Translations under genes and position numbers: made by a program
Notes under the pieces: generated by a model
What the model saw: only the letters and a program-made list of their open reading frames with translations
Told to the model about the DNA's origin: nothing
Databases searched by the model: none
Part shown: piece after piece, positions 3,592 through 24,054 of the stretch
Layout of the letters: each line of letters starts with the position of its first letter
How positions within the stretch are numbered: position 1 is the stretch's first letter
NCBI GenBank assembly: GCA_903832035.1
Contig: CAILAD010000020.1
Span: 1 to 37,183 of the forward strand
Source of the DNA: an uncultured bacterium
GTDB taxonomy: Bacteria > Patescibacteriota > Saccharimonadia > CAILAD01 > BJGX01
Direction: 5' to 3'
DNA length: 37,183 nucleotides

Positions 3592-4833
3592 CTAGAGAGA
3601 TTTTAAGGCCTGTATAGGACGCTTTCTGGCGGCCTTTACGGCTGGGGCTACACCAAACACCACTCCGACGAACAAACTAACGCCTATGGCAAGTATAAGT
3701 GCTTTAACGCTAAATATAGGCGTGATACCTGCAACCTTTTTGATTACTAAGCCAGCTAAGTAGCTAAGTCCAAGTCCCAATAGACCTCCAGCTATAGACA
3801 GTATCACTGCTTCAATCAAGAATTGACTTAAAATATTTCCACTAGTGGCGCCTATAGCTTTACGTATACCTATTTCTCGGGTACGCTCACTAACCGTCAC
3901 AAGCATAATATTCATAATTCCAATTCCACCAACCAGCAGGCTTATAGAAGCTATAGCCACAACAAAGGTTGTGAGTAGGTCGAGGATTGTATTAAATGTG
4001 GTCAGCAGATCTTTTTGAGTAAGGACGCTAAAGTCTTCTTGGCCACCATGATTTTTCTTCAACTGGTCTTTTATAGCCTGCTGAGCTGAATCGATATCTT
4101 GTGGTTTATCTACCTGAGCCTGTATCCTAAATATCTGATTTGAGCCCGTCACGACGTTAGCAGTGTTGATTGGTATATAAACCACATCATCAGATCCGGG
4201 ACCAAAACCCGTGCCAGTGTCGGACTTTTTGGTCACACCTACAATGGTAAATAGTTGCCCTTTAATAGATATTTGTTTACCTATTGCATCGGTTGAGCCA
4301 AATAAATTCTGTTTAGTATCTGCCCCAATAATAGCAACCTTTCTTGACGAAGCATTGTCCTGGTTGGTAAAGAAGGCACCATTATCATACTTTAAATCCC
4401 TAATGCTACTATAGTTAGCTGTCGTTCCAAATATATATGGTGTATTGGTAGAAAGCTGATCATAAACAACTGCTGATGAAATAAGATTATACGGAGCTAC
4501 CTCAGTGACGTGATTAATTTTGTCGAGACTTGCAACATCGGCCTGAGTTAATGTAGATGCACCAACACTTCCGGCAAAGTTGAATCCGCCGGTAGTCTTC
4601 TGTTGTTGACCATTTTTAGCAGTACTACCACTGGTCTGGCCAGATAAGATAGTCAGGAGATTAGTTCCTAGGCCTGATACTTGGCCCGAAACCTGTGACT
4701 TAACGCCATCACCCACGGCAATCATGACAAGGACTGCAAAAACACCTATAATGATGCCCAGCATAGTAAGAAAGGACCTTAACTTAGCAGACTTAATACT
4801 TATTAAGGCCATTTTTATGTTTTGCAAAATCAT
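3592..4833 (-). CDS. MacB/FtsX-family ABC transporter permease
   Basis: LRSFLTMLGIIIGV, a large extracytoplasmic loop and ISLLVGGIGIMNIMLVTVSERTREIGIRKAIGA. Confidence 0.95.
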   Translation of the reverse strand: MILQNIKMALISIKSAKLRSFLTMLGIIIGVFAVLVMIAVGDGVKSQVSGQVSGLGTNLLTILSGQTSGSTAKNGQQQKTTGGFNFAGSVGASTLTQADVASLDKINHVTEVAPYNLISSAVVYDQLSTNTPYIFGTTANYSSIRDLKYDNGAFFTNQDNASSRKVAIIGADTKQNLFGSTDAIGKQISIKGQLFTIVGVTKKSDTGTGFGPGSDDVVYIPINTANVVTGSNQIFRIQAQVDKPQDIDSAQQAIKDQLKKNHGGQEDFSVLTQKDLLTTFNTILDLLTTFVVAIASISLLVGGIGIMNIMLVTVSERTREIGIRKAIGATSGNILSQFLIEAVILSIAGGLLGLGLSYLAGLVIKKVAGITPIFSVKALILAIGVSLFVGVVFGVAPAVKAARKRPIQALKSL

Positions 4834-5531
4834 TGTGCCAACCTCTTGTTATGCAGTAAGCCGTCCCTAACCCAAACTATCCTGTTAGCATACTCACCGA
4901 TTTCTGGATTATGAGTAACGACTACTATTGTTACGCCTTGTTTATTGAGGTCTTTGAGCAAATTCATTATTTCAGTACCTGTTTTAGTATCTAAGTTACC
5001 TGTTGGCTCATCAGCCAATATGAGGCTAGGGTCATTTGTTAGAGCCCTGGCTATAGCAACCCTCTGAACCTGACCTCCACTCATTCGATTTGATTTATGC
5101 TTTGCTTTATCCAGCAGACCAACTTTTCTTAACACTTCTTCGGTCTTTTTCTTTCTAAAAGACTTACTCTTTCTGGCATAGACCATTGGTAGCTCTACGT
5201 TCTGACTGACATTTAGTCGTGGCAGTAAATTAAAGCTCTGAAAAACAAAACCTATCTTATCCCTTCTTAACCCAGCAAGTTTTTTAGGGCTAAGTGTAGC
5301 AATATCTACATCATCTAGTAGAAATACGCCTGAAGTAGGTTTATCTAATAGACCTATAATATTCATAAGTGTAGACTTTCCCGAACCAGAGGGCCCCATG
5401 ATTGCCACGAAGTCACCTTCATTTATTTGAAGATCGACATCTTTTAGTGCATCAAGTACCCCGGCTTCATCGTCGTAACGTTTACCTAAGCTCTTCATAT
5501 ATATAACTGAGTTTTTATTATTTTTTTGCAT
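4830..5531 (-). CDS. ABC transporter ATP-binding protein (MacB/LolD type)
   Basis: Walker A GPSGSGKST, GFVFQSFNL, MSGGQVQRVAIARAL, LILADEPTGNLD. Confidence 0.95.
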   Translation of the reverse strand: MQKNNKNSVIYMKSLGKRYDDEAGVLDALKDVDLQINEGDFVAIMGPSGSGKSTLMNIIGLLDKPTSGVFLLDDVDIATLSPKKLAGLRRDKIGFVFQSFNLLPRLNVSQNVELPMVYARKSKSFRKKKTEEVLRKVGLLDKAKHKSNRMSGGQVQRVAIARALTNDPSLILADEPTGNLDTKTGTEIMNLLKDLNKQGVTIVVVTHNPEIGEYANRIVWVRDGLLHNKRLAQ

Positions 5532-6975
5532 AGATAAAACTTAATACTTGGTCAGAATTAACATTACCATTATATGACAGAATTGTATCTTTACCTAATA
5601 TCTGTCTGTCTAGAGGGGTGACGTTTGATGCGTCAAGCTGGTACCCTCCATTAGGTAGGGTTAGTGTATAGCTCAAATCATATGGCCAACCGCCTATTTG
5701 CTTTTGGATAAAGGTATTTATTGCTAACTTATCACCAAACAAGTACTTTGTGGGTAATTTATACCTCAAGGTTACGGTACTTTCAGACAGGGGTGTGATA
5801 TTTCTGTAATACCCAAGAACTAACTTATCCAGCTCTTGATGCTGTGAGATATTACCTATTCCAATAGATGAATTTAATAACTTGGCATCCTTAGGAAGTG
5901 CCATACTTACGTAGCTATGATCATCGCCTATAAGCCACCGCTTCTCGGTGGGGATATTTGGATCGATATAGGAAATTCTATATCCAGAGGTGTGCCTGGA
6001 GATTATTTTTAGATCTATAGTACTAGATCCGTCGGTCTCTACAAACTGATTCATGACTACGGAATTTTTTATGTAGGGTGAGCTTTTATTAGCTGCTATA
6101 TTGGCATCTGCCATCATGAAGTAATTATCGTCGGTTTGCTTTACTTCGCCCGCTGCACCAATACTCTTTATGATATCCTCGACCTGGGTGTTGCTACTGT
6201 AGATAACTATTTGTTTTTGGTCGATTAGTTGCTGGAATAATGTTGAGTACGACTTTAGTTCAATAATATTTTTAGACAATAACCTAGTAATTAGTTGATT
6301 TGAAAGCTCTCCAAGTATTCCAGATTTAGGGTCCTTACCCAATACTTTATCTCTACCTGTTTCAACCTCTAGCTGAACATTATCCCTAAAGTTATCCTTA
6401 GTTACCGTGATATTGTAGTCCTTTAAATTAACTGGTCCGAGCTTATCTAGTAGCGCAACTATGACTTCGGGTGTAAACTGCACAACGTTATTAACAGGTA
6501 CAGAGGTATACTGTTGATAATAATACATCGCTTCTTTAGCATTATCTGGGAAACTTAAGCTATTGCTGCTATCCCTTATTGAGGTGCACGGACCAATGCC
6601 CAACAAATAAGTAGGTGGCTGGTAAACCTTATTCAAACATCCGTCGCCAGTATCTATTGCATAGATACCGATTAGTTTATCTGGAACTATCTTGCCCTTA
6701 TTAGAACTAATCAAGCCTACTGTACCTATAAATCCACCGCCGGTTCGGATCTCGGCATTATTAGCTAGTAGTAACAGAGATTTTTGAGGCGTATTATACC
6801 CAGCCATAATCTTATAGAGCTGCTGATACTTAGATAAGTCTTTAGATTTTTGATCCACTGATTGCAAGTAGCTACCGACCTTAATAGACGCTACAAAGGC
6901 GCAGAATATTAAACAAGATATAGCCAGCACAACTGGCAACCTGGGTATACCTCTGTTTTTATTGGTCGAGGGCAT
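5518..6975 (-). CDS. DUF4012-domain membrane-anchored protein
   Basis: N-terminal TM helix; LLLANNAEIRTGGGFIG and DANIAANKS motifs. Confidence 0.8.
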   Translation of the reverse strand: MPSTNKNRGIPRLPVVLAISCLIFCAFVASIKVGSYLQSVDQKSKDLSKYQQLYKIMAGYNTPQKSLLLLANNAEIRTGGGFIGTVGLISSNKGKIVPDKLIGIYAIDTGDGCLNKVYQPPTYLLGIGPCTSIRDSSNSLSFPDNAKEAMYYYQQYTSVPVNNVVQFTPEVIVALLDKLGPVNLKDYNITVTKDNFRDNVQLEVETGRDKVLGKDPKSGILGELSNQLITRLLSKNIIELKSYSTLFQQLIDQKQIVIYSSNTQVEDIIKSIGAAGEVKQTDDNYFMMADANIAANKSSPYIKNSVVMNQFVETDGSSTIDLKIISRHTSGYRISYIDPNIPTEKRWLIGDDHSYVSMALPKDAKLLNSSIGIGNISQHQELDKLVLGYYRNITPLSESTVTLRYKLPTKYLFGDKLAINTFIQKQIGGWPYDLSYTLTLPNGGYQLDASNVTPLDRQILGKDTILSYNGNVNSDQVLSFIYAKK

Positions 6976-9967: not shown

Positions 9968-10381
9968 CTACTTCTGAGACTGCCTATCTAGGCAGATATT
10001 TACCTGCTCATCAGCCAGCTTATTATCTGATCGATAGACATGGGTAAATGATATATCCAAACCTACTATTTTATTTATTATCTCTCTATACAAGGGTGAG
10101 ATATTGGCGTTTTTAACCCTGTATTCACCGTTGAGTTGCTTCTCAACTAGCTGACTGTCTAGATAAAACTCTATCTTCATATCTTTGTACTCACTGATAT
10201 TGTCTAGGGCCAATAAGACAGCACTATACTCAGCATAGTTATTGGTCTGAATTCCAAGATATTTTGAATATTCAGCTACTACATTACTATCCGCATCTAT
10301 AAAAACAACGCCTGAAGCAGCAGGTCCTGGGTTTCCTCTAGATCCGCCGTCACAAAAAATCTTTATCGTCTGAGTAGCCAT
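9968..10381 (-). CDS. rnhA: Ribonuclease HI
   Basis: FCDGGSRGNPGPA, TNNYAEY, LDSQLV..QLNGEYRVK, HVYRSDNKLAD. Confidence 0.93.
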   Translation of the reverse strand: MATQTIKIFCDGGSRGNPGPAASGVVFIDADSNVVAEYSKYLGIQTNNYAEYSAVLLALDNISEYKDMKIEFYLDSQLVEKQLNGEYRVKNANISPLYREIINKIVGLDISFTHVYRSDNKLADEQVNICLDRQSQK

Positions 10382-11952: not shown

Positions 11953-12495
11953 GTGCAGAAAATACCTAAATCAGCCCAACTACTAGCCGTGATAGCCAAG
12001 AGAGACCTTGTGCGTCACGGCAATATTATTAAAGATCAAGCTTTGCTGGAGATGTTTTCTGATGCCAGAACCACAACCCCCTCCAGGAGAATTGCTGATA
12101 CAGCTTCACTTCTAGCTAAACAGGGCTTTTTAAGTGTTGGTATCATAGATAGCCAGAAGGTCTACACCATAACTAAAAAAGGCCGAGAGAAAGTTAATCG
12201 GGCTGAGGCTATGAAAAGTGTTATTACGTCAGACCGCTGGGATGGTAGATACTACTTAGTCACCTTCGATATCCCAGAGAATAAAAAGGTAGTCAGAAAT
12301 CAAATCATTATCGACCTTAAGAGAGCCGGCTTTATAAACTACAGCAAGGGCATATGGTTGTCACCCTATAACCCTATAGGCTACATTGAATCTGTTCGAA
12401 AGAGATATGATCTAAAGAAGAATATAAAACTTATTGTCGCCAGCCATCTAGAAGATGAAGCAAAAATAAAAAGACACTTTAAATTAGTGTCTTAG
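11953..12495 (+). CDS. PaaX-like protein (wHTH plus Cas2-like ferredoxin-fold domain)
   Basis: wHTH wing VYTITKKG followed by WDGRYYLVTFDIPE..K..RN....L...GF....KGIWLSPY. Confidence 0.8.
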   Translation: MQKIPKSAQLLAVIAKRDLVRHGNIIKDQALLEMFSDARTTTPSRRIADTASLLAKQGFLSVGIIDSQKVYTITKKGREKVNRAEAMKSVITSDRWDGRYYLVTFDIPENKKVVRNQIIIDLKRAGFINYSKGIWLSPYNPIGYIESVRKRYDLKKNIKLIVASHLEDEAKIKRHFKLVS

Positions 12496-19841: not shown

Positions 19842-21653
19842 CTATATTGATCTAGTACTTATGTCCTTAAGTATAGTAGACTTAAATTCGTCTAGAGGCA
19901 TCGAGCCCTGATCTCCCTTAGAGTACTTTCTAATAGCGACCGTACTTGATGCCTGTTCTTTCTCGCCAACTACCAGGGTATACGGAACCTTATACATTTC
20001 ACTGTCCCTGATTCGCTTCCCTAGAGACTCATTGTCATCATCTAGTACAACCCTAACACCTGATTTCTTAAGGTCCTGATAAACATTACGGGCATAATCT
20101 GTGAATTTTTCTGAAACCGGCAATATTCTAACTTGCTCAGGGGCTAACCACAAAGGAAAAGCTCCAGCAAAGTGCTCAATTAGGATCATTATAAATCTTT
20201 CAAATGAACCAAAGATAGCCCTATGAATCATAACGGGATGTTTCTCTTGGCCTTCAGAGTCCGTGTAGGCTAGGCTGAACCGCTTAGGCATGGCAAAGTC
20301 GAGCTGAAGTGAGGCGAGCTGTGTTTCGCGCCCCTGAGCATCTCTAAACATGAAGTCTAGCTTAGGACCGTATATTGCAGCTTCACCTTCCATGCGTTTA
20401 GCTTTGAGTCCCTTCTCTTCAGCGACTTCCTTTAATATTCTCTCTGATTCCGACCAATCTTTATCATCTCCGATATATCTATCCAGCTTTTCTTTGTCTC
20501 TCACAGACAGCGAAACCCAGTGATCACCCCAGAGACCAAGTGAACTATAAAAGCTGGTGATAATATCTACTATCATTTCTGCCTCATCTCTAATCTGATC
20601 AATTGTACAGAAGGTATGGCCGTCATCTACTGTAAAACCCCGAGTTCTTTGTAAACCACCTATTTCACCTGGCTTTTCATCTCGGTACTGCATAGTCTGC
20701 TCTACATAACGAATTGGTAGGTCCCTATAGCTCCTAGGTCTTGAGGCAAATATCTGGGTATGATGCGGACAATTAACCGGCTTAAGCACAAACTCTTGCT
20801 TGTGGTGGCTTTGTACAGTAAATAGCTCTTCCTCGAATTTTTCGGCATGTCCAGAGGTCAAATAAAGTTCCTTTTTTGCTAAATGAGGTATAGAAACTTG
20901 CTGCATATCGTACTTATGGCCCAATTCCTCGAGCGCGCGTTTAAGTTCCTGGATGATTACTGAGCCACGAGGTGTGTACATCGGCAAGCCTGGCCCAACT
21001 AAGTCAGAAAATACGAATAGATCAAGCTCTTTACCTAATTTGCGGTGGTCGCGTCTCTCCGCTTCAACCAACATTTCCTTATATTTTGCCAAATCAACTT
21101 CTGTTGTAAAAGCTACACCATATATTCTTTGCAACTGGGGGTTATTTTCATTTCCTCTCCAGTAGGCACCAGATACTTTTGTTAGATCAAAGGCTTTGGC
21201 ATTTATCTCAGAGGTGTTATTAACATGAGGTCCACGGCATAAATCAACAAAATCACCAGTTCTATAAACAGTAACGCTCTTAACCTCAGTACCACTTGCG
21301 ACCAGGTCATCATCTCCAGAATCCTTGACTGCAGTCGACCCTTTTTCTCTCAGGTCATTTAAAAGTTCAACCTTAAAATCTTGTCTTTTTTCTGTAAAAT
21401 ACTGTATTGCTTGGTCTATCGGCCATTCTTCAGTTACGAAATCAATCTTTTGTGATATCAATTTTTGCATCTCTTTGCGTATCTTACCGAGTTCACTTAT
21501 TTCAATGGGCTTATCTAGCTGCATATCATAATAAAACCCGTTGTCGATGACTGGGCCAACACCAAACTTTGCTTCTGGATGCATCTTCTGCACTACTGCG
21601 GCCATAATATGGGCGAGGCTGTGTCTTGTTTTGTGTAAATCATGATCATTCAT
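19842..21653 (-). CDS. thrS: Threonyl-tRNA synthetase (short form without N-terminal TGS domain)
   Basis: RHSLAH, DLCRGPH, RDHRKLG, KPVNCPHH, YGPKLD, HRAIFGSFERF. Confidence 0.97.
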   Translation of the reverse strand: MNDHDLHKTRHSLAHIMAAVVQKMHPEAKFGVGPVIDNGFYYDMQLDKPIEISELGKIRKEMQKLISQKIDFVTEEWPIDQAIQYFTEKRQDFKVELLNDLREKGSTAVKDSGDDDLVASGTEVKSVTVYRTGDFVDLCRGPHVNNTSEINAKAFDLTKVSGAYWRGNENNPQLQRIYGVAFTTEVDLAKYKEMLVEAERRDHRKLGKELDLFVFSDLVGPGLPMYTPRGSVIIQELKRALEELGHKYDMQQVSIPHLAKKELYLTSGHAEKFEEELFTVQSHHKQEFVLKPVNCPHHTQIFASRPRSYRDLPIRYVEQTMQYRDEKPGEIGGLQRTRGFTVDDGHTFCTIDQIRDEAEMIVDIITSFYSSLGLWGDHWVSLSVRDKEKLDRYIGDDKDWSESERILKEVAEEKGLKAKRMEGEAAIYGPKLDFMFRDAQGRETQLASLQLDFAMPKRFSLAYTDSEGQEKHPVMIHRAIFGSFERFIMILIEHFAGAFPLWLAPEQVRILPVSEKFTDYARNVYQDLKKSGVRVVLDDDNESLGKRIRDSEMYKVPYTLVVGEKEQASSTVAIRKYSKGDQGSMPLDEFKSTILKDISTRSI

Positions 21654-21675
21654 CAGTTATACCTTTCATTAAATA

Positions 21676-21824
21676 AATAAAAACCACCCTACAATGCTCG
21701 GCCCCATATTACTGGGGGGTTCCACCGAGCTTATCCAGGCGGATCTCTCTTTTGTGTATGTAACGCCCTACACTGCGAAGCCTTTGGGTAGTTGGTTAGT
21801 CTACTTACTTACTTTATTAAACTT
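21676..21824 (-). promoter_or_regulatory. T-box riboswitch leader of thrS (compact form)
   Basis: Antiterminator GCTCGG-[TGGAACC bulge]-CCCC-loop-GGGG-CCGAGC at 21696-21730. It is preceded by a Stem III-like ATCC-GCCT-GGAT, and ACC triplets lie further upstream. Confidence 0.8.
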
Positions 21825-21830
21825 AGTCGT

Positions 21831-21859
21831 AGTATAACAAATATACCCATATGTGACAA
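21831..21859 (-). promoter_or_regulatory. Sigma70-type promoter of thrS
   Basis: TTGTCA-17 nt-TATACT with a TGn extension. Confidence 0.7.
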
Positions 21860-21874
21860 TAAAGACCTTATTTA

Positions 21875-21903
21875 TTGACATATTCTAGATTAAGTAGTAT
21901 CAT
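21875..21903 (+). promoter_or_regulatory. Sigma70-type promoter of the zinc-finger repeat gene
   Basis: TTGACA-17 nt-TATCAT; AAGGAGG at 21941-21947. Confidence 0.75.
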
Positions 21904-21954
21904 ATTGGTCATATCAGATGTTCTGATAGTTCATTCCAATAAGGAGGTTGTGAC

Positions 21955-22533
21955 TTGGAAAAGTCTAACTGTGCTAACTGTAACAAGTCCACTCACAAGA
22001 TCGTATACAGCAAGTACGGCGATATCTGCAGCAGTTGCTACTGGAAGAAGCGTCGAGTTGACCCGAACTTCAGATACGAATGCAGCAGGTGCCAAAAAGT
22101 GAGGCCTCACGGCAAGTGGCTAGATAAGTCAGCCGGGGTAAGGATTTGTGACATTTGTGCAAATAAAGACCGGATGAAGAACGAATCAAGGCTCAAGGAA
22201 TGCAGCAGGTGCAGCAGGATAGCCATCCCAGCAAGGTCTAAGCCACATGTGCTCTGCCCATCCTGTGAATCACTCAGGTACTACAAAGACAATTCCAAGC
22301 ATGAAACCTGCAGGCTCTGCAAAGCCTCAAAGTCGGTACATGTCCGTAATGAAGCTGGCATGCCTATCTGTCAAGGATGCGACAGGCAGCTAAGTGTTAA
22401 GGACCCATCCACTCACAAGCCCTGTGGCGAGTGTGGTAATGTCAGGTTCGGTCACACTAGTAAGAAGACTGGTAAGCACACTTGCAGGTCTTGCTACTAC
22501 AAAGCCAAAAAGAAGTTGCAATCCAGCAACTAA
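21955..22533 (+). CDS. Orphan basic protein with five tandem C4 (CxxC-x14-18-CxxC) zinc-finger units
   Basis: 10 CxxC motifs in 192 aa; TTG start 7 nt after AAGGAGG; own promoter and terminator. Confidence 0.85.
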   Translation: MEKSNCANCNKSTHKIVYSKYGDICSSCYWKKRRVDPNFRYECSRCQKVRPHGKWLDKSAGVRICDICANKDRMKNESRLKECSRCSRIAIPARSKPHVLCPSCESLRYYKDNSKHETCRLCKASKSVHVRNEAGMPICQGCDRQLSVKDPSTHKPCGECGNVRFGHTSKKTGKHTCRSCYYKAKKKLQSSN

Positions 22534-22538
22534 CACCC

Positions 22539-22567
22539 AGCCCTCAGTTAAACTGAGGGCTTTTTTT
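22539..22567 (+). terminator. Intrinsic terminator
   Basis: AGCCCTCAGT-TAA-ACTGAGGGCT followed by a T tract. Confidence 0.9.
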
Positions 22568-22599
22568 ATCAAAAAAACACCACATAGTGATGCTTTTTT

Positions 22600-22676
<77 letters not shown>

Positions 22677-22797
22677 TCACACCGAGTAATTATACATCAG
22701 TAAGGCCATTATATCTACATCCAGACCGGTACACCACGAAATATGCATAATTTTAAATTATGATGTAGCTAGATCTACACTTTAGAAAGTCTTGACC

Positions 22798-24054
22798 TTA
22801 TAATGAGCCTGTTTCTTTTAACAAATCACCAGCGAAACCAACCCTATTTAGACTAATAGAGCTTTCAAAATAAGAAGCAGCGCTAGCCGATGTACCAGAG
22901 CCATAACGATTTCTTATCAAGTGAACAGCTCTAGCTGCTCTTTCTAATCTATCCGATTCAGTATTTTCGAATAGACCCACCTGCCATACAGCGGACAAGC
23001 CGTAAAGTGCTACACATATTTTTAATACTTCTTTAAAATACTTGTGTTTATTTAACAACATTATACAAACAGACTTAATTGAATTAGTATCTTGCATGTA
23101 TGCTGTATTTTCAATCTTAAAAGTAGCTCTTGTTCGGTCGCAAAAATACACAATAATTTCTAAACTATTTGAATTTAAAGATTTTTTTACCAGTCTACTT
23201 GATAGGTTTTCACAAATCTTGGTTACAAACGTTGTAATTTCTTTTAACGTACTTGGCTTATACAGACCCATAGTAACCTGATTACTGATAGATTTCTGCT
23301 GTTTATAACTGGGCATATCTACTTCATAACCCCTTAGGCGGAGGTACCACTTATGTCCATTAACTCCAAAATTAGTGCCTAAGTACTTCCAACTAGCGTT
23401 ATACAGGTCTGTTGGTGTGTATATTGCATGATTAGCAAACTGGCGGGCCATCCTATCACCAATACCGGTAAGACTAGTGAGCGTGAGGCCTTTGTAAAAA
23501 TTTGACACCTCGCCGCTCGTTAGACTGATAAACCCTTTCGGCTTACTATAGCTCGCCGCTTGTTTAGCTAGCCAAGAATTGCTAGCCACACCAATAGAAC
23601 AATCTATATGTTCGTTATATAAATTATATAAACTAGCTTTTATAGCCTTTACTAAAGCAAAAACTTCTCCTCTGTTTTGTGCATAGCTAGGTACTTTAAG
23701 GAACGCTTCATCGATACCTTTAGGAATTACTTTACAAAAAGTGTTGTGAAATATAGCCATAAATTCACGATGAACCTGCCTGTAGCGATCAGGGCTATCC
23801 TCTACGACCACTAAATTAGGGCATAGCTCCAGGGCTCTATATACTCTAGTACCAGTTTTTATACCTTTTGCCTTTGCATCATATGATGCAGCCACTATAC
23901 TTGAGCCCCTGCTATTACCTGTAGCTACGGCAACAGGCTTACCCCTTAGGCTTTTATCATAAAACTGCTCTACCGAAGCAAAGAATGAATCCATGTCTAT
24001 GTAGATAGTTGAATAATCGCAAACCTCTTGTCTAATAAAATTCTCAGCCTTCAT
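22798..24054 (-). CDS. dinB: Y-family DNA polymerase (DNA polymerase IV / DinB-like)
   Basis: IDMDSFFASVEQ, AASYDAK..GIKTG, GIDEAF, SIGVASN..LAK.A....KPKG, GIG. Confidence 0.9.
   Translation of the reverse strand: MKAENFIRQEVCDYSTIYIDMDSFFASVEQFYDKSLRGKPVAVATGNSRGSSIVAASYDAKAKGIKTGTRVYRALELCPNLVVVEDSPDRYRQVHREFMAIFHNTFCKVIPKGIDEAFLKVPSYAQNRGEVFALVKAIKASLYNLYNEHIDCSIGVASNSWLAKQAASYSKPKGFISLTSGEVSNFYKGLTLTSLTGIGDRMARQFANHAIYTPTDLYNASWKYLGTNFGVNGHKWYLRLRGYEVDMPSYKQQKSISNQVTMGLYKPSTLKEITTFVTKICENLSSRLVKKSLNSNSLEIIVYFCDRTRATFKIENTAYMQDTNSIKSVCIMLLNKHKYFKEVLKICVALYGLSAVWQVGLFENTESDRLERAARAVHLIRNRYGSGTSASAASYFESSISLNRVGFAGDLLKETGSL

Follow-up and report, generated by a model that had tools for sequence, protein, structure and literature searches.

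A stand-alone five-finger Cys4 array protein from an uncultured Saccharimonadia bacterium and its relatives among bacterial repeat proteins

Contig CAILAD010000020.1 of assembly GCA_903832035.1, from an uncultured bacterium of the Saccharimonadia (Patescibacteriota), was analysed over its positions 1 to 37,183, and this whole stretch of DNA is referred to here as the window. It contains, on the forward strand, a gene for a small protein that consists almost entirely of five tandem Cys4 zinc fingers. This protein is a diverged, stand-alone member of an unnamed, patchily distributed family of bacterial repeat proteins. The reading that we favour, with a confidence slightly better than even, is that of a modular nucleic-acid-binding zinc-finger array, which probably binds double-stranded DNA.

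The gene and its five fingers

The reading frame starts with a TTG codon, which is the first possible start since an in-frame stop codon (TAA) lies at 21940. The gene has its own expression signals on both sides (Table 1). Its product has 20 Cys residues, or 10.4% of the total, and a script placed all of these inside exactly ten CxxC knuckles, at residues 6, 25, 43, 65, 83, 101, 119, 139, 157 and 177. The knuckles pair into five fingers, CxxC-x(15,18,14,16,16)-CxxC, joined by four linkers of 14 amino acids (aa) each, and finger 5 is followed by a 12-aa tail; the C-terminus after this finger reads ...CRSCYYKAKKKLQSSN. An earlier inspection of the letters of the window, referred to below as the original prediction, had described precisely this architecture, and it had also rightly called the protein very basic (43 Lys and Arg residues against 16 Asp and Glu, pI 9.6). 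The K-D/N-x-S pattern that it ascribed to the linkers is present in three of the four (KNES, KDNS and KDPS), while the first linker has VDPN in its place. Finger 4 is followed by a linker that comes near to the family consensus (...KDPSTHKP).

Short repeats in the DNA, namely GAATGCAGCAGGTGC at 22078 and 22198 and TCCACTCACAAG at 21988 and 22408, are indeed found where they had been noticed and had been taken as a sign of internal duplication. They say little for a recent event. The five units are just 22-31% identical at the protein level, and an exact repeat of 15 nucleotides (nt) also turned up in 3 out of 300 synonymous-codon shuffles of the gene. Therefore, internal duplication in this gene seems to be old rather than recent.

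The protein belongs to a cluster of 16 near-identical sequences (at 90% identity), which stem from many assemblies and several public sources. Fifteen of these variants were listed: 14 run to 192 aa, and the remaining one was called short at its N-terminus. Taken together, the variants have changes relative to the window protein at 15 positions, and in the parts covered not a single Cys is changed. Several of the changes cluster in or just after the first knuckles of fingers (positions 47, 87, 88, 121, 124 and 125). The gene stretch is present in lake and freshwater metagenome assemblies, and one metatranscriptome library contains a 192-nt contig that lies wholly within the reading frame (22332-22523). 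This is a weak hint of transcription only, since DNA can contaminate such libraries; another RNA run (X21) gave no coverage of the gene stretch, which says nothing about absence. The gene is a real, well-formed single gene, expressed-looking and accessory.

Table 1. Features at and around the zinc-finger gene, in coordinates of the window
Feature	Position	Strand	Basis or remark
Gene, 192-aa five-finger Cys4 zinc-finger array protein	21955..22533	+	Open reading frame (ORF), CxxC script, unit hidden Markov model (HMM)
Finger 1, residues 6-28, loop 15	21970..22038	+	Weakest family-unit match, 12.1 bits
Finger 2, residues 43-68, loop 18	22081..22158	+	19.2 bits; low model confidence
Finger 3, residues 83-104, loop 14	22201..22266	+	20.9 bits
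Finger 4, residues 119-142, loop 16	22309..22380	+	Best family-unit match, 39.1 bits
Finger 5, residues 157-180, loop 16	22423..22494	+	29.2 bits; then basic C-terminal helix
Sigma-70-like promoter TTGACA-17-TATCAT, 11/12	21875..21903	+	Consensus scan; pattern match only
Shine-Dalgarno sequence AGGAGG, 7 nt 5' of the TTG start	21942..21947	+	Sequence reading
Intrinsic terminator, perfect hairpin with 11-nt arms, then T-run	22539..22568	+	Sequence scan
Accessory cassette (promoter, gene, terminator), ~752 bp	21847..22598	+	Absent at the same junction in genome G004
tRNA-Val(GAC), 3' end abuts the cassette	22600..22676	-	Neighbour, not part of the gene

The repeat family and the long recombinases

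An exhaustive HMMER search with the window protein against 1.84 billion representative sequences gave 66 matches at E ≤ 1e-3, 13 of them at E ≤ 1e-10; a word-indexed homologue search with the same protein alone found nothing beyond its own cluster. Three of the 66 were judged to be false and were removed before every count, two for want of any CxxC (P0052, P0062) and one as a DnaJ-like protein (P0057). The remaining matches are tandem arrays of the unit of the window protein, 81-490 aa long. Another three, P0025, P0036 and P0050, have long N-terminal extensions and were also excluded from the alignment A4 and its counts. From 288 fingers of 73 other proteins, with the window protein and its cluster representative left aside, an HMM of the single unit was built. 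It finds five domains in the window protein (12.1-39.1 bits each) and a total of 95.9 bits, while the best of 200 shuffles in which every Cys was kept in place reached 15.3 bits. The repeat pattern therefore exceeds chance.

Within these 288 fingers, the loop between the knuckles is 16 aa long in 209, 15 in 42 and 17 in 20, while the definition of the family allows 13-19, and the linker counts 14 aa in 126 cases, 10 in 73 and 8 in 35. The linker classes are discrete and spaced by about one helical turn. This agrees with the idea of a modular array put forward in the original prediction, the spacing being quantised; the 14-aa linker that had been regarded as invariant is the commonest of three classes in the family. 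The number of fingers varies as well: it ranges from 1 to 11 per protein, with four the commonest. It changes quickly, since exact tandem copies of units occur in P0006, L045 and L046, and since two loci in metagenome-assembled genomes (MAGs) of Falkowbacteria, with the same flanking genes, have seven fingers in one case (L037) and three in the other (L040).

The consensus of the unit is C-S-x-C-G-[KE]-h-[KR]-x-V-x-x-R-x-x-x-G-K-P-I-C-x-x-C-Y-x-[KR]-x-[RK]-Y-x-D-P-S-T-H-E-x. Apart from the Cys residues, the conserved positions are G5, K/R8 (75%), V10 (76%), R13 (62%), G17 (73%), P19, I20, Y25, K/R27 (63%) and R/K29 (60%), followed by the D-P-S-T-H-E of the linker. Conserved scaffold and basic positions are thus interleaved with highly variable ones, as would be anticipated for a binding scaffold. 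The window protein has both the spacing and the conserved residues of the family; fingers 4 and 5 fit best and finger 1 worst. Many of the stand-alone arrays end with a short last finger, CxxC-x11-CxxCYQRQRRA (…IQALGLCYACYQRQRRA…), and a C-terminus of the form -[HRDNSC]-P-A (P0005, P0012, P0013, P0020, P0023, P0032, P0034, P0036 and P0066; L030, L037, L040 and L042). These two traits are the mark of a subfamily, not a family-wide requirement.

The window protein stays below the cut-off of every model in Pfam, NCBIfam, PHROGs and PADLOC, so that the claim that it falls into no characterised family has stood up at curated cut-offs. PHROGs gives it matches at E ≥ 0.015 only, and none of the 5027 models of anti-phage defence proteins in PADLOC-DB is matched by any of 74 family members at E ≤ 1e-3. 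An Rfam scan returned tRNA only. Pfam GATA (PF00320) is unlisted for the window protein even at E ≤ 10, and it is not among the 25 families shown, out of 27, for 64 family members; Pfam LIM, DnaJ_CXXCXGXG and DZR_2 are likewise not listed for the window protein. Elsewhere in the family, DZR_2 (PF18912) matches 24 of 64 members at E ≤ 0.01, with five of 31 other members scanned passing its 27-bit cut-off (28.2-33.2 bits), and P0006 reaches 27.5 bits with DUF7685 (PF24734). Apart from these two, which a few members reach marginally, no Pfam model attains its cut-off on a family member. The ESM Atlas offers only unnamed clusters, at 0.86-0.87, which is below the useful range.

The same unit also occurs in much longer proteins. 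One of these, of 775 aa, is encoded in a Mycobacterium sp. MAG (locus L049) and has a helical N-terminus, about nine fingers (8 domains and 95.2 bits with the unit HMM) and a C-terminal region; the gene just upstream encodes a Phage_integrase protein. Another, of 970 aa, lies on the Wukongibacter sp. M2B1 chromosome (L050, 5353-8265), where about 15 fingers (13 domains, 164.5 bits) are combined with a GIY-YIG domain and a Pfam Phage_integrase domain (2.4e-7), with two integrase genes and a helix-turn-helix gene upstream. Further long forms, of 684-839 aa and with the same layout, were found by profile search, the integrase match being weak or absent (best 0.0041). P0067-P0073 score 45-95 bits with the unit HMM; the long forms, L049 and L050 included, have 5-13 unit domains and 45-165 bits each. 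A tblastn search with the long form P0067 retrieved 297 plasmid records, chiefly from Streptomyces (118) and Rhodococcus (60), in which the matching genes are annotated as 'hypothetical protein' or 'XRE family transcriptional regulator'. In the one record that was opened, a 'site-specific integrase' adjoins.

In Tn554-related actinobacterial elements, a tyrosine recombinase of normal size is reported to be accompanied by an 'abnormally long' one of 611-828 aa, whose N-terminal extension of more than 400 aa had no recognisable domain (Van Houdt et al. 2012, PMC3414803). The finger-bearing long proteins seem to be the class described there. Reading the extension as zinc fingers comes from the present analysis and not from that paper. 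Judged by the unit HMM and the domain matches, fingers of the family make up the N-terminal part of some tyrosine recombinases of the long, Tn554-like kind, in Actinomycetota as well as in Bacillota. The original prediction had pointed to similar Cys repeats in actinobacterial integrase-linked proteins, and these have turned out to be the same repeats.

Distribution and genomic setting

The genome to which the window belongs (632 kb in 49 contigs, 96% complete) has a single copy of the gene; no paralogue was found when the unit HMM was run over its six frames, where the next-best hit has an E of 0.12. With the window protein as query, the three other genomes of the genus gave no match (0/3), and 31 other genomes of the same taxonomic family gave one weak match only (E 0.0056), which contains three stop codons. 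The profile of the repeat family matches 17 genomes, that of the window (G000) included, in an even sample of 401 from the same phylum at E ≤ 1e-3. Eight of these matching loci were read, and seven hold true arrays. The eighth, locus L036 of G053, was rejected on sequence reading and with the unit HMM as a different CxxC-x17-CxxC protein. Free arrays thus turn up sporadically in small genomes of the Patescibacteria type.

Named genomes were searched with four close members (A3) as seed, which biases the taxonomic census to that subfamily. This gave 18 loci, 14 of them confident: eight in Candidatus Saccharibacteria, two in Falkowbacteria, one in a 'Patescibacteria group' genome, one in a MAG labelled Gammaproteobacteria, and the Mycobacterium sp. 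and Wukongibacter sp. M2B1 loci described above. For three Methanoregulaceae loci from this search (L051, L052 and L054), the unit HMM gave no confirmation at E ≤ 1e-3. Viral contigs contributed only four weak loci; three hold one or two fingers at E ≤ 1e-3 with the unit HMM, and L065 does not. The fingers of the phage-contig proteins from IMG/VR (L064, 1000-1590; L066 and L067, near 4700-5560) number one or two and are of the short type. Those of L066 and L067 precede a C-terminal region, which presumably resembles a homing-endonuclease DNA-binding module.

Stand-alone arrays sit alone among housekeeping genes at the 19 loci of relatives, and these loci share no partner gene. What had been offered as the best candidate for an undescribed system is one stand-alone gene. 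The gene in the window is flanked by thrS, tRNA-Val and the gene of a DinB-type polymerase. Its junction was compared within the genus by BLAST of positions 19842-24054 of the window against G004-G006, followed by reading of the junction. On contig C33 of G004, the DNA upstream of thrS (...GTATAACAAATA...) is followed after only a few bases by the 3' end of tRNA-Val. Since the two meet directly there, the roughly 752 bp between them in the window appear to be an insertion or a deletion. The gene is a species-level accessory gene at the thrS/tRNA-Val junction. What occupies the slot differs between genomes of the genus, as seen with the loci L055 and L057 of G004 and G005: there is nothing in G004, a gene resembling galU (UTP-glucose-1-phosphate uridylyltransferase) on contig C17 of G005, and the zinc-finger cassette here. 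The ORF is the most G+C-rich stretch of its neighbourhood, and neither att-like direct repeats at the edges of the cassette nor a flanking integrase were found. The first 20 nt of the cassette (CATATGTGACAATAAAGACC, 21848-21867) are 85% identical to positions 22152-22171, which code for ...CANKD... of finger 2; this similarity may be due to chance or may be a relic of an older, longer array.

It could be imagined that the whole cassette is a functionless relic, either a piece left over from the recombinase gene of a mobile element or a selfish element, without a current cellular role. Accessory status beside a tRNA 3' end, absence from the other genomes of the genus, a deviating G+C content of the ORF (~0.50 versus ~0.40 in the surroundings) and the patchy occurrence in the phylum sample would all suit such a view. 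Yet the gene has retained a promoter-like site, a Shine-Dalgarno sequence and a terminator of its own, and 14 of the 15 listed variants are full-length with their Cys residues unchanged. Furthermore, stand-alone arrays recur in many lineages, including a syntenic site in two Falkowbacteria MAGs, and no integrase or repeat ends flank the cassette. We therefore hold a relic to be highly improbable.

Some other loci and genes may be mentioned. In a Patescibacteria group MAG (L047, 3554-5035), one ORF of 493 aa unites three parts, namely a LexA DNA-binding domain, an S24 peptidase and an N6/N4 DNA methylase; it is followed by an HNH endonuclease gene and then by a two-finger relative of the family. 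At L034 (1721-4375, G109:C2), a SufB gene split by an intein with a LAGLIDADG domain lies a few kb from a zinc-finger array gene. The window itself contains a 180-aa ORF beside tRNA-Pro (11953-12495), whose sole match is the PaaX central Cas2-like domain (2.1e-15), and a small RNase H/RVT_3-like ORF (9968-10381).

Fold, possible role and comparison with known systems

A model of the protein was obtained with AlphaFold2 (AF2) from an alignment of 74 sequences, with a predicted local distance difference test score (pLDDT) of 80.8 and a predicted template modelling score (pTM) of 0.61. Most of residues 61-192 score above 90, and the means of ten-residue blocks in this part are 78-98; the model from the single sequence (pLDDT 40) is unusable. 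Each modelled unit consists of a knuckle, short strands and a second knuckle that opens a helix of ~10 residues, after which a short turn and a strand lead to the next finger. Such predicted secondary structure speaks against a metallothionein-type cluster. A zinc buffer, store or redox sensor, in which the 20 thiols would hold and release Zn or sense oxidants, is also very unlikely on other grounds, in spite of the high Cys content and of the fact that the bacterial metallothionein SmtA contains a GATA-like finger. The protein has strict four-Cys fingers with a conserved non-Cys scaffold and basic residues, not metal-thiolate cluster motifs, and fusion to recombinases would make no sense for storage. 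Moreover, no metal-homeostasis genes were seen as neighbours, in the window or at the 19 loci of relatives.

The original prediction compared the fingers to a treble clef of the GATA type. This part is supported at a weak level: the secondary structure predicted by AF2 fits it, a single modelled finger superposes on the GATA finger of AreA at 1.7-1.8 Å over 34 of 41-42 residues, with 29% identity and a weak Z of 2.2-2.5, and the best matches of the family profile in the PDB are GATA-3 (E 5.9e-5), the LIM protein PINCH (1.1e-4), GATA-1 (1.6e-4) and GATA-4 (4.9e-4). To judge from the profile and the model, 'GATA-like treble clef' seems to be a fair description of one unit, and not a demonstrated family membership. 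For the array as a whole, Foldseek found nothing in the PDB at E ≤ 1e-3; ranked highest were C2H2 arrays (E 5.6e-3, template modelling score (TM) 0.2) and LIM/RBR proteins, with TM ≤ 0.31. VIA-align reached a best Z of 2.7 against 48,161 representatives and of 3.4 on a re-look at the Foldseek candidates. Neither Foldseek nor VIA thus brought up a solved multi-finger counterpart, which does not make the fold new.

Since the family profile matches LIM proteins about as well as GATA (PINCH, 1.1e-4 and 1.4e-3), another possibility has to be weighed, in which the fingers would be rigid interaction modules without any role with nucleic acids and the protein would serve as an adaptor between proteins or a chaperone-like scaffold, after the manner of LIM or DnaJ zinc domains. 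LIM pairs of LMO2 rank high in the multi-finger structural comparison (Z 2.9-3.1, though with a root-mean-square deviation of 11 Å), CxxCG, which DnaJ also has, is frequent as the first knuckle, and one of the false-positive matches was DnaJ-like. A LIM domain, however, needs a spacer of two residues, while the linkers of the family have 14, 10 or 8, and neither of the corresponding Pfam models is listed for the window protein. The loci of the relatives have no partner gene in common, and the strong positive charge suits nucleic acid better, so that we consider a scaffold quite unlikely.

Charge, the alternation of conserved basic and variable positions in the unit, the recombinase fusion partners and the resemblance to GATA fingers are the reasons for which DNA binding is favoured. 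The array might work as follows. Each finger would hold one Zn through its four Cys residues and would fold as a GATA-like treble clef, the first CxxC knuckle leading into a beta-hairpin loop and the second CxxC standing at the start of a helix. Rigid helical linkers of 14 residues would join the fingers. The conserved basic residues, at unit positions 8 and 13 in the hairpin and 27 and 29 on the helix, could contact the phosphate backbone, and the variable positions between them could read bases. The result would be an extended, fairly rigid array along a nucleic acid, most likely double-stranded DNA, in which the number of fingers sets the length of the site. In its host, the protein could act as a DNA-binding regulator or a nucleoid-type protein, and it may be derived from, or interfere with, the targeting module of a mobile element.

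Several observations count against this nucleic-acid-binding array. When fused to a recombinase, the domain could just as well serve protein-protein or synapsis contacts without binding DNA. No conserved neighbour or partner gene and no target site were found at the 7 + 12 stand-alone loci. The window protein has neither the short last finger nor the '-PA' tail of many relatives, its fingers 1 and 2 are poorly modelled by AF2, and structure searches do not go beyond a Z of 3.4. The GATA match is marginal, is partly driven by the Cys pattern and is no better than that to the protein-binding LIM domains of PINCH. Finally, a phmmer search of the PDB with the window protein alone leads to archaeal small zinc-finger or Zn-ribbon proteins deposited as RNA-binding or translation-linked (E 0.006-0.21); the match at E 0.006 spans residues 127-184 only.

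These last matches, to HVO_2753-like proteins and a 'Zn-ribbon RNA-binding protein involved in translation' (E 0.006, 0.087 and 0.21), are the best that a single sequence gives, and they raise the question of whether the protein might be a small zinc-ribbon protein that binds RNA or the ribosome, docking on rRNA or structured RNA in the manner of archaeal two-finger micro-proteins and C4 ribosomal proteins. The NCBIfam model PRK14890, a 'putative Zn-ribbon RNA-binding protein', gives 13.9 bits (E 0.041), which is far below its cut-off of 61, and both PRK14890 and HVO_2753-like proteins are two-finger proteins of ~60 aa. Strong basicity would suit RNA, and the neighbours thrS and tRNA-Val are translation genes; this neighbourhood is not conserved among the relatives. 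A component of the ribosome is hardly to be expected for a gene that is missing from all three genomes of the same genus and not convincing in the 31 other genomes of the same family. The fusion partners, moreover, are DNA recombinases. We regard RNA or ribosome binding as unlikely.

The modular array that binds DNA remains our preferred reading, and it can be extended to a more general proposal, which is rather doubtful as a whole. It would be that of a prokaryotic poly-zinc-finger recognition system, in which each GATA-like Cys4 finger reads a few base pairs with the variable positions of its hairpin and helix, conserved linkers of the DPSTHE type fix the register as TGEKP does in C2H2 arrays, and the number of fingers determines how long a site is. 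Tn554-like recombinases would choose their integration targets by this means, and ultra-small Patescibacteria would use free arrays, rapidly expanding and contracting, as bespoke DNA-binding regulators.

To our knowledge, the general view assigns long tandem arrays of zinc fingers with conserved linkers to eukaryotes, and to bacteria single fingers of the Ros/MucR type or ribbons appended to enzymes. A literature search, with little coverage of subscription journals, found no description of a bacterial family of free poly-finger proteins with conserved linkers that is shared with tyrosine recombinases. Zinc fingers as such, and zinc ribbons in tandem, are well known; this family is not covered by a specific model in either Pfam or NCBIfam. 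If modular DNA binding is true, the unexplained 400-aa front end of widespread actinobacterial plasmid and chromosome recombinases would be a device for recognition of targets or ends. It would also mean a new class of regulators for Patescibacteria, whose regulatory repertoire is very small, and a compact scaffold, with ~38 aa per unit, for engineered DNA recognition. If the arrays bind nothing, this is merely an unnamed family of Cys-rich repeats.

In comparison with known systems, the GATA finger resembles the family at the level of one unit. It shares the four Cys ligands, the spacing CxxC-x16-18-CxxC, the features 'CxxCG...R...G..[ILV]C..C' and the basic residues after the second knuckle. 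However, GATA factors have one or two fingers, whereas the present family is bacterial, with arrays of up to 11 fingers and conserved linkers, and the scores are marginal. LIM domains are made of two zinc fingers with a spacer of two residues and with C2HC and C4/C3D ligands, in contrast to the 14-aa linkers and all-Cys ligands of the window protein; the similarity to PINCH exists at the level of single fingers. DZR_2 and DUF7685 are generic models with descriptions that give no function. Neither of them models the unit together with its linker, and neither matches the window protein.

The C-terminal C4 zinc-ribbon repeats of type IA topoisomerases bind single-stranded DNA. With their several tandem C4 zinc modules (Zn_ribbon_Top1), the bacterial enzymes are the one well-known bacterial case of DNA binding by such modules. 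Their repeats are always appended to an enzyme core and their HMM does not match the window protein; the TopA that adjoins the relative L044 has PF01396 repeats of its own, which are distinct from the family. The eukaryotic C2H2 poly-zinc-finger arrays, such as CTCF and ZFP568, resemble the family in their tandem fingers, variable in number, and in a conserved linker, which is TGEKP in C2H2 arrays and ...D-P-S-T-H-E-x-C in the family. They differ in ligands (C2H2 versus C4), in fold and in the length of the unit (28 versus ~38-40 aa), and there is no real structural match (TM ≤ 0.31). As for the Tn554-like long recombinases and the Wukongibacter fusion, the window protein is the array alone, without a recombinase domain in it or nearby, while these long proteins, of 684-970 aa, have an N-terminal helical region, a C-terminal recombinase domain and a second integrase adjacent. 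With these enzymes the window protein shares the repeat unit itself, the spacing of its knuckles and the short, quantised linkers.

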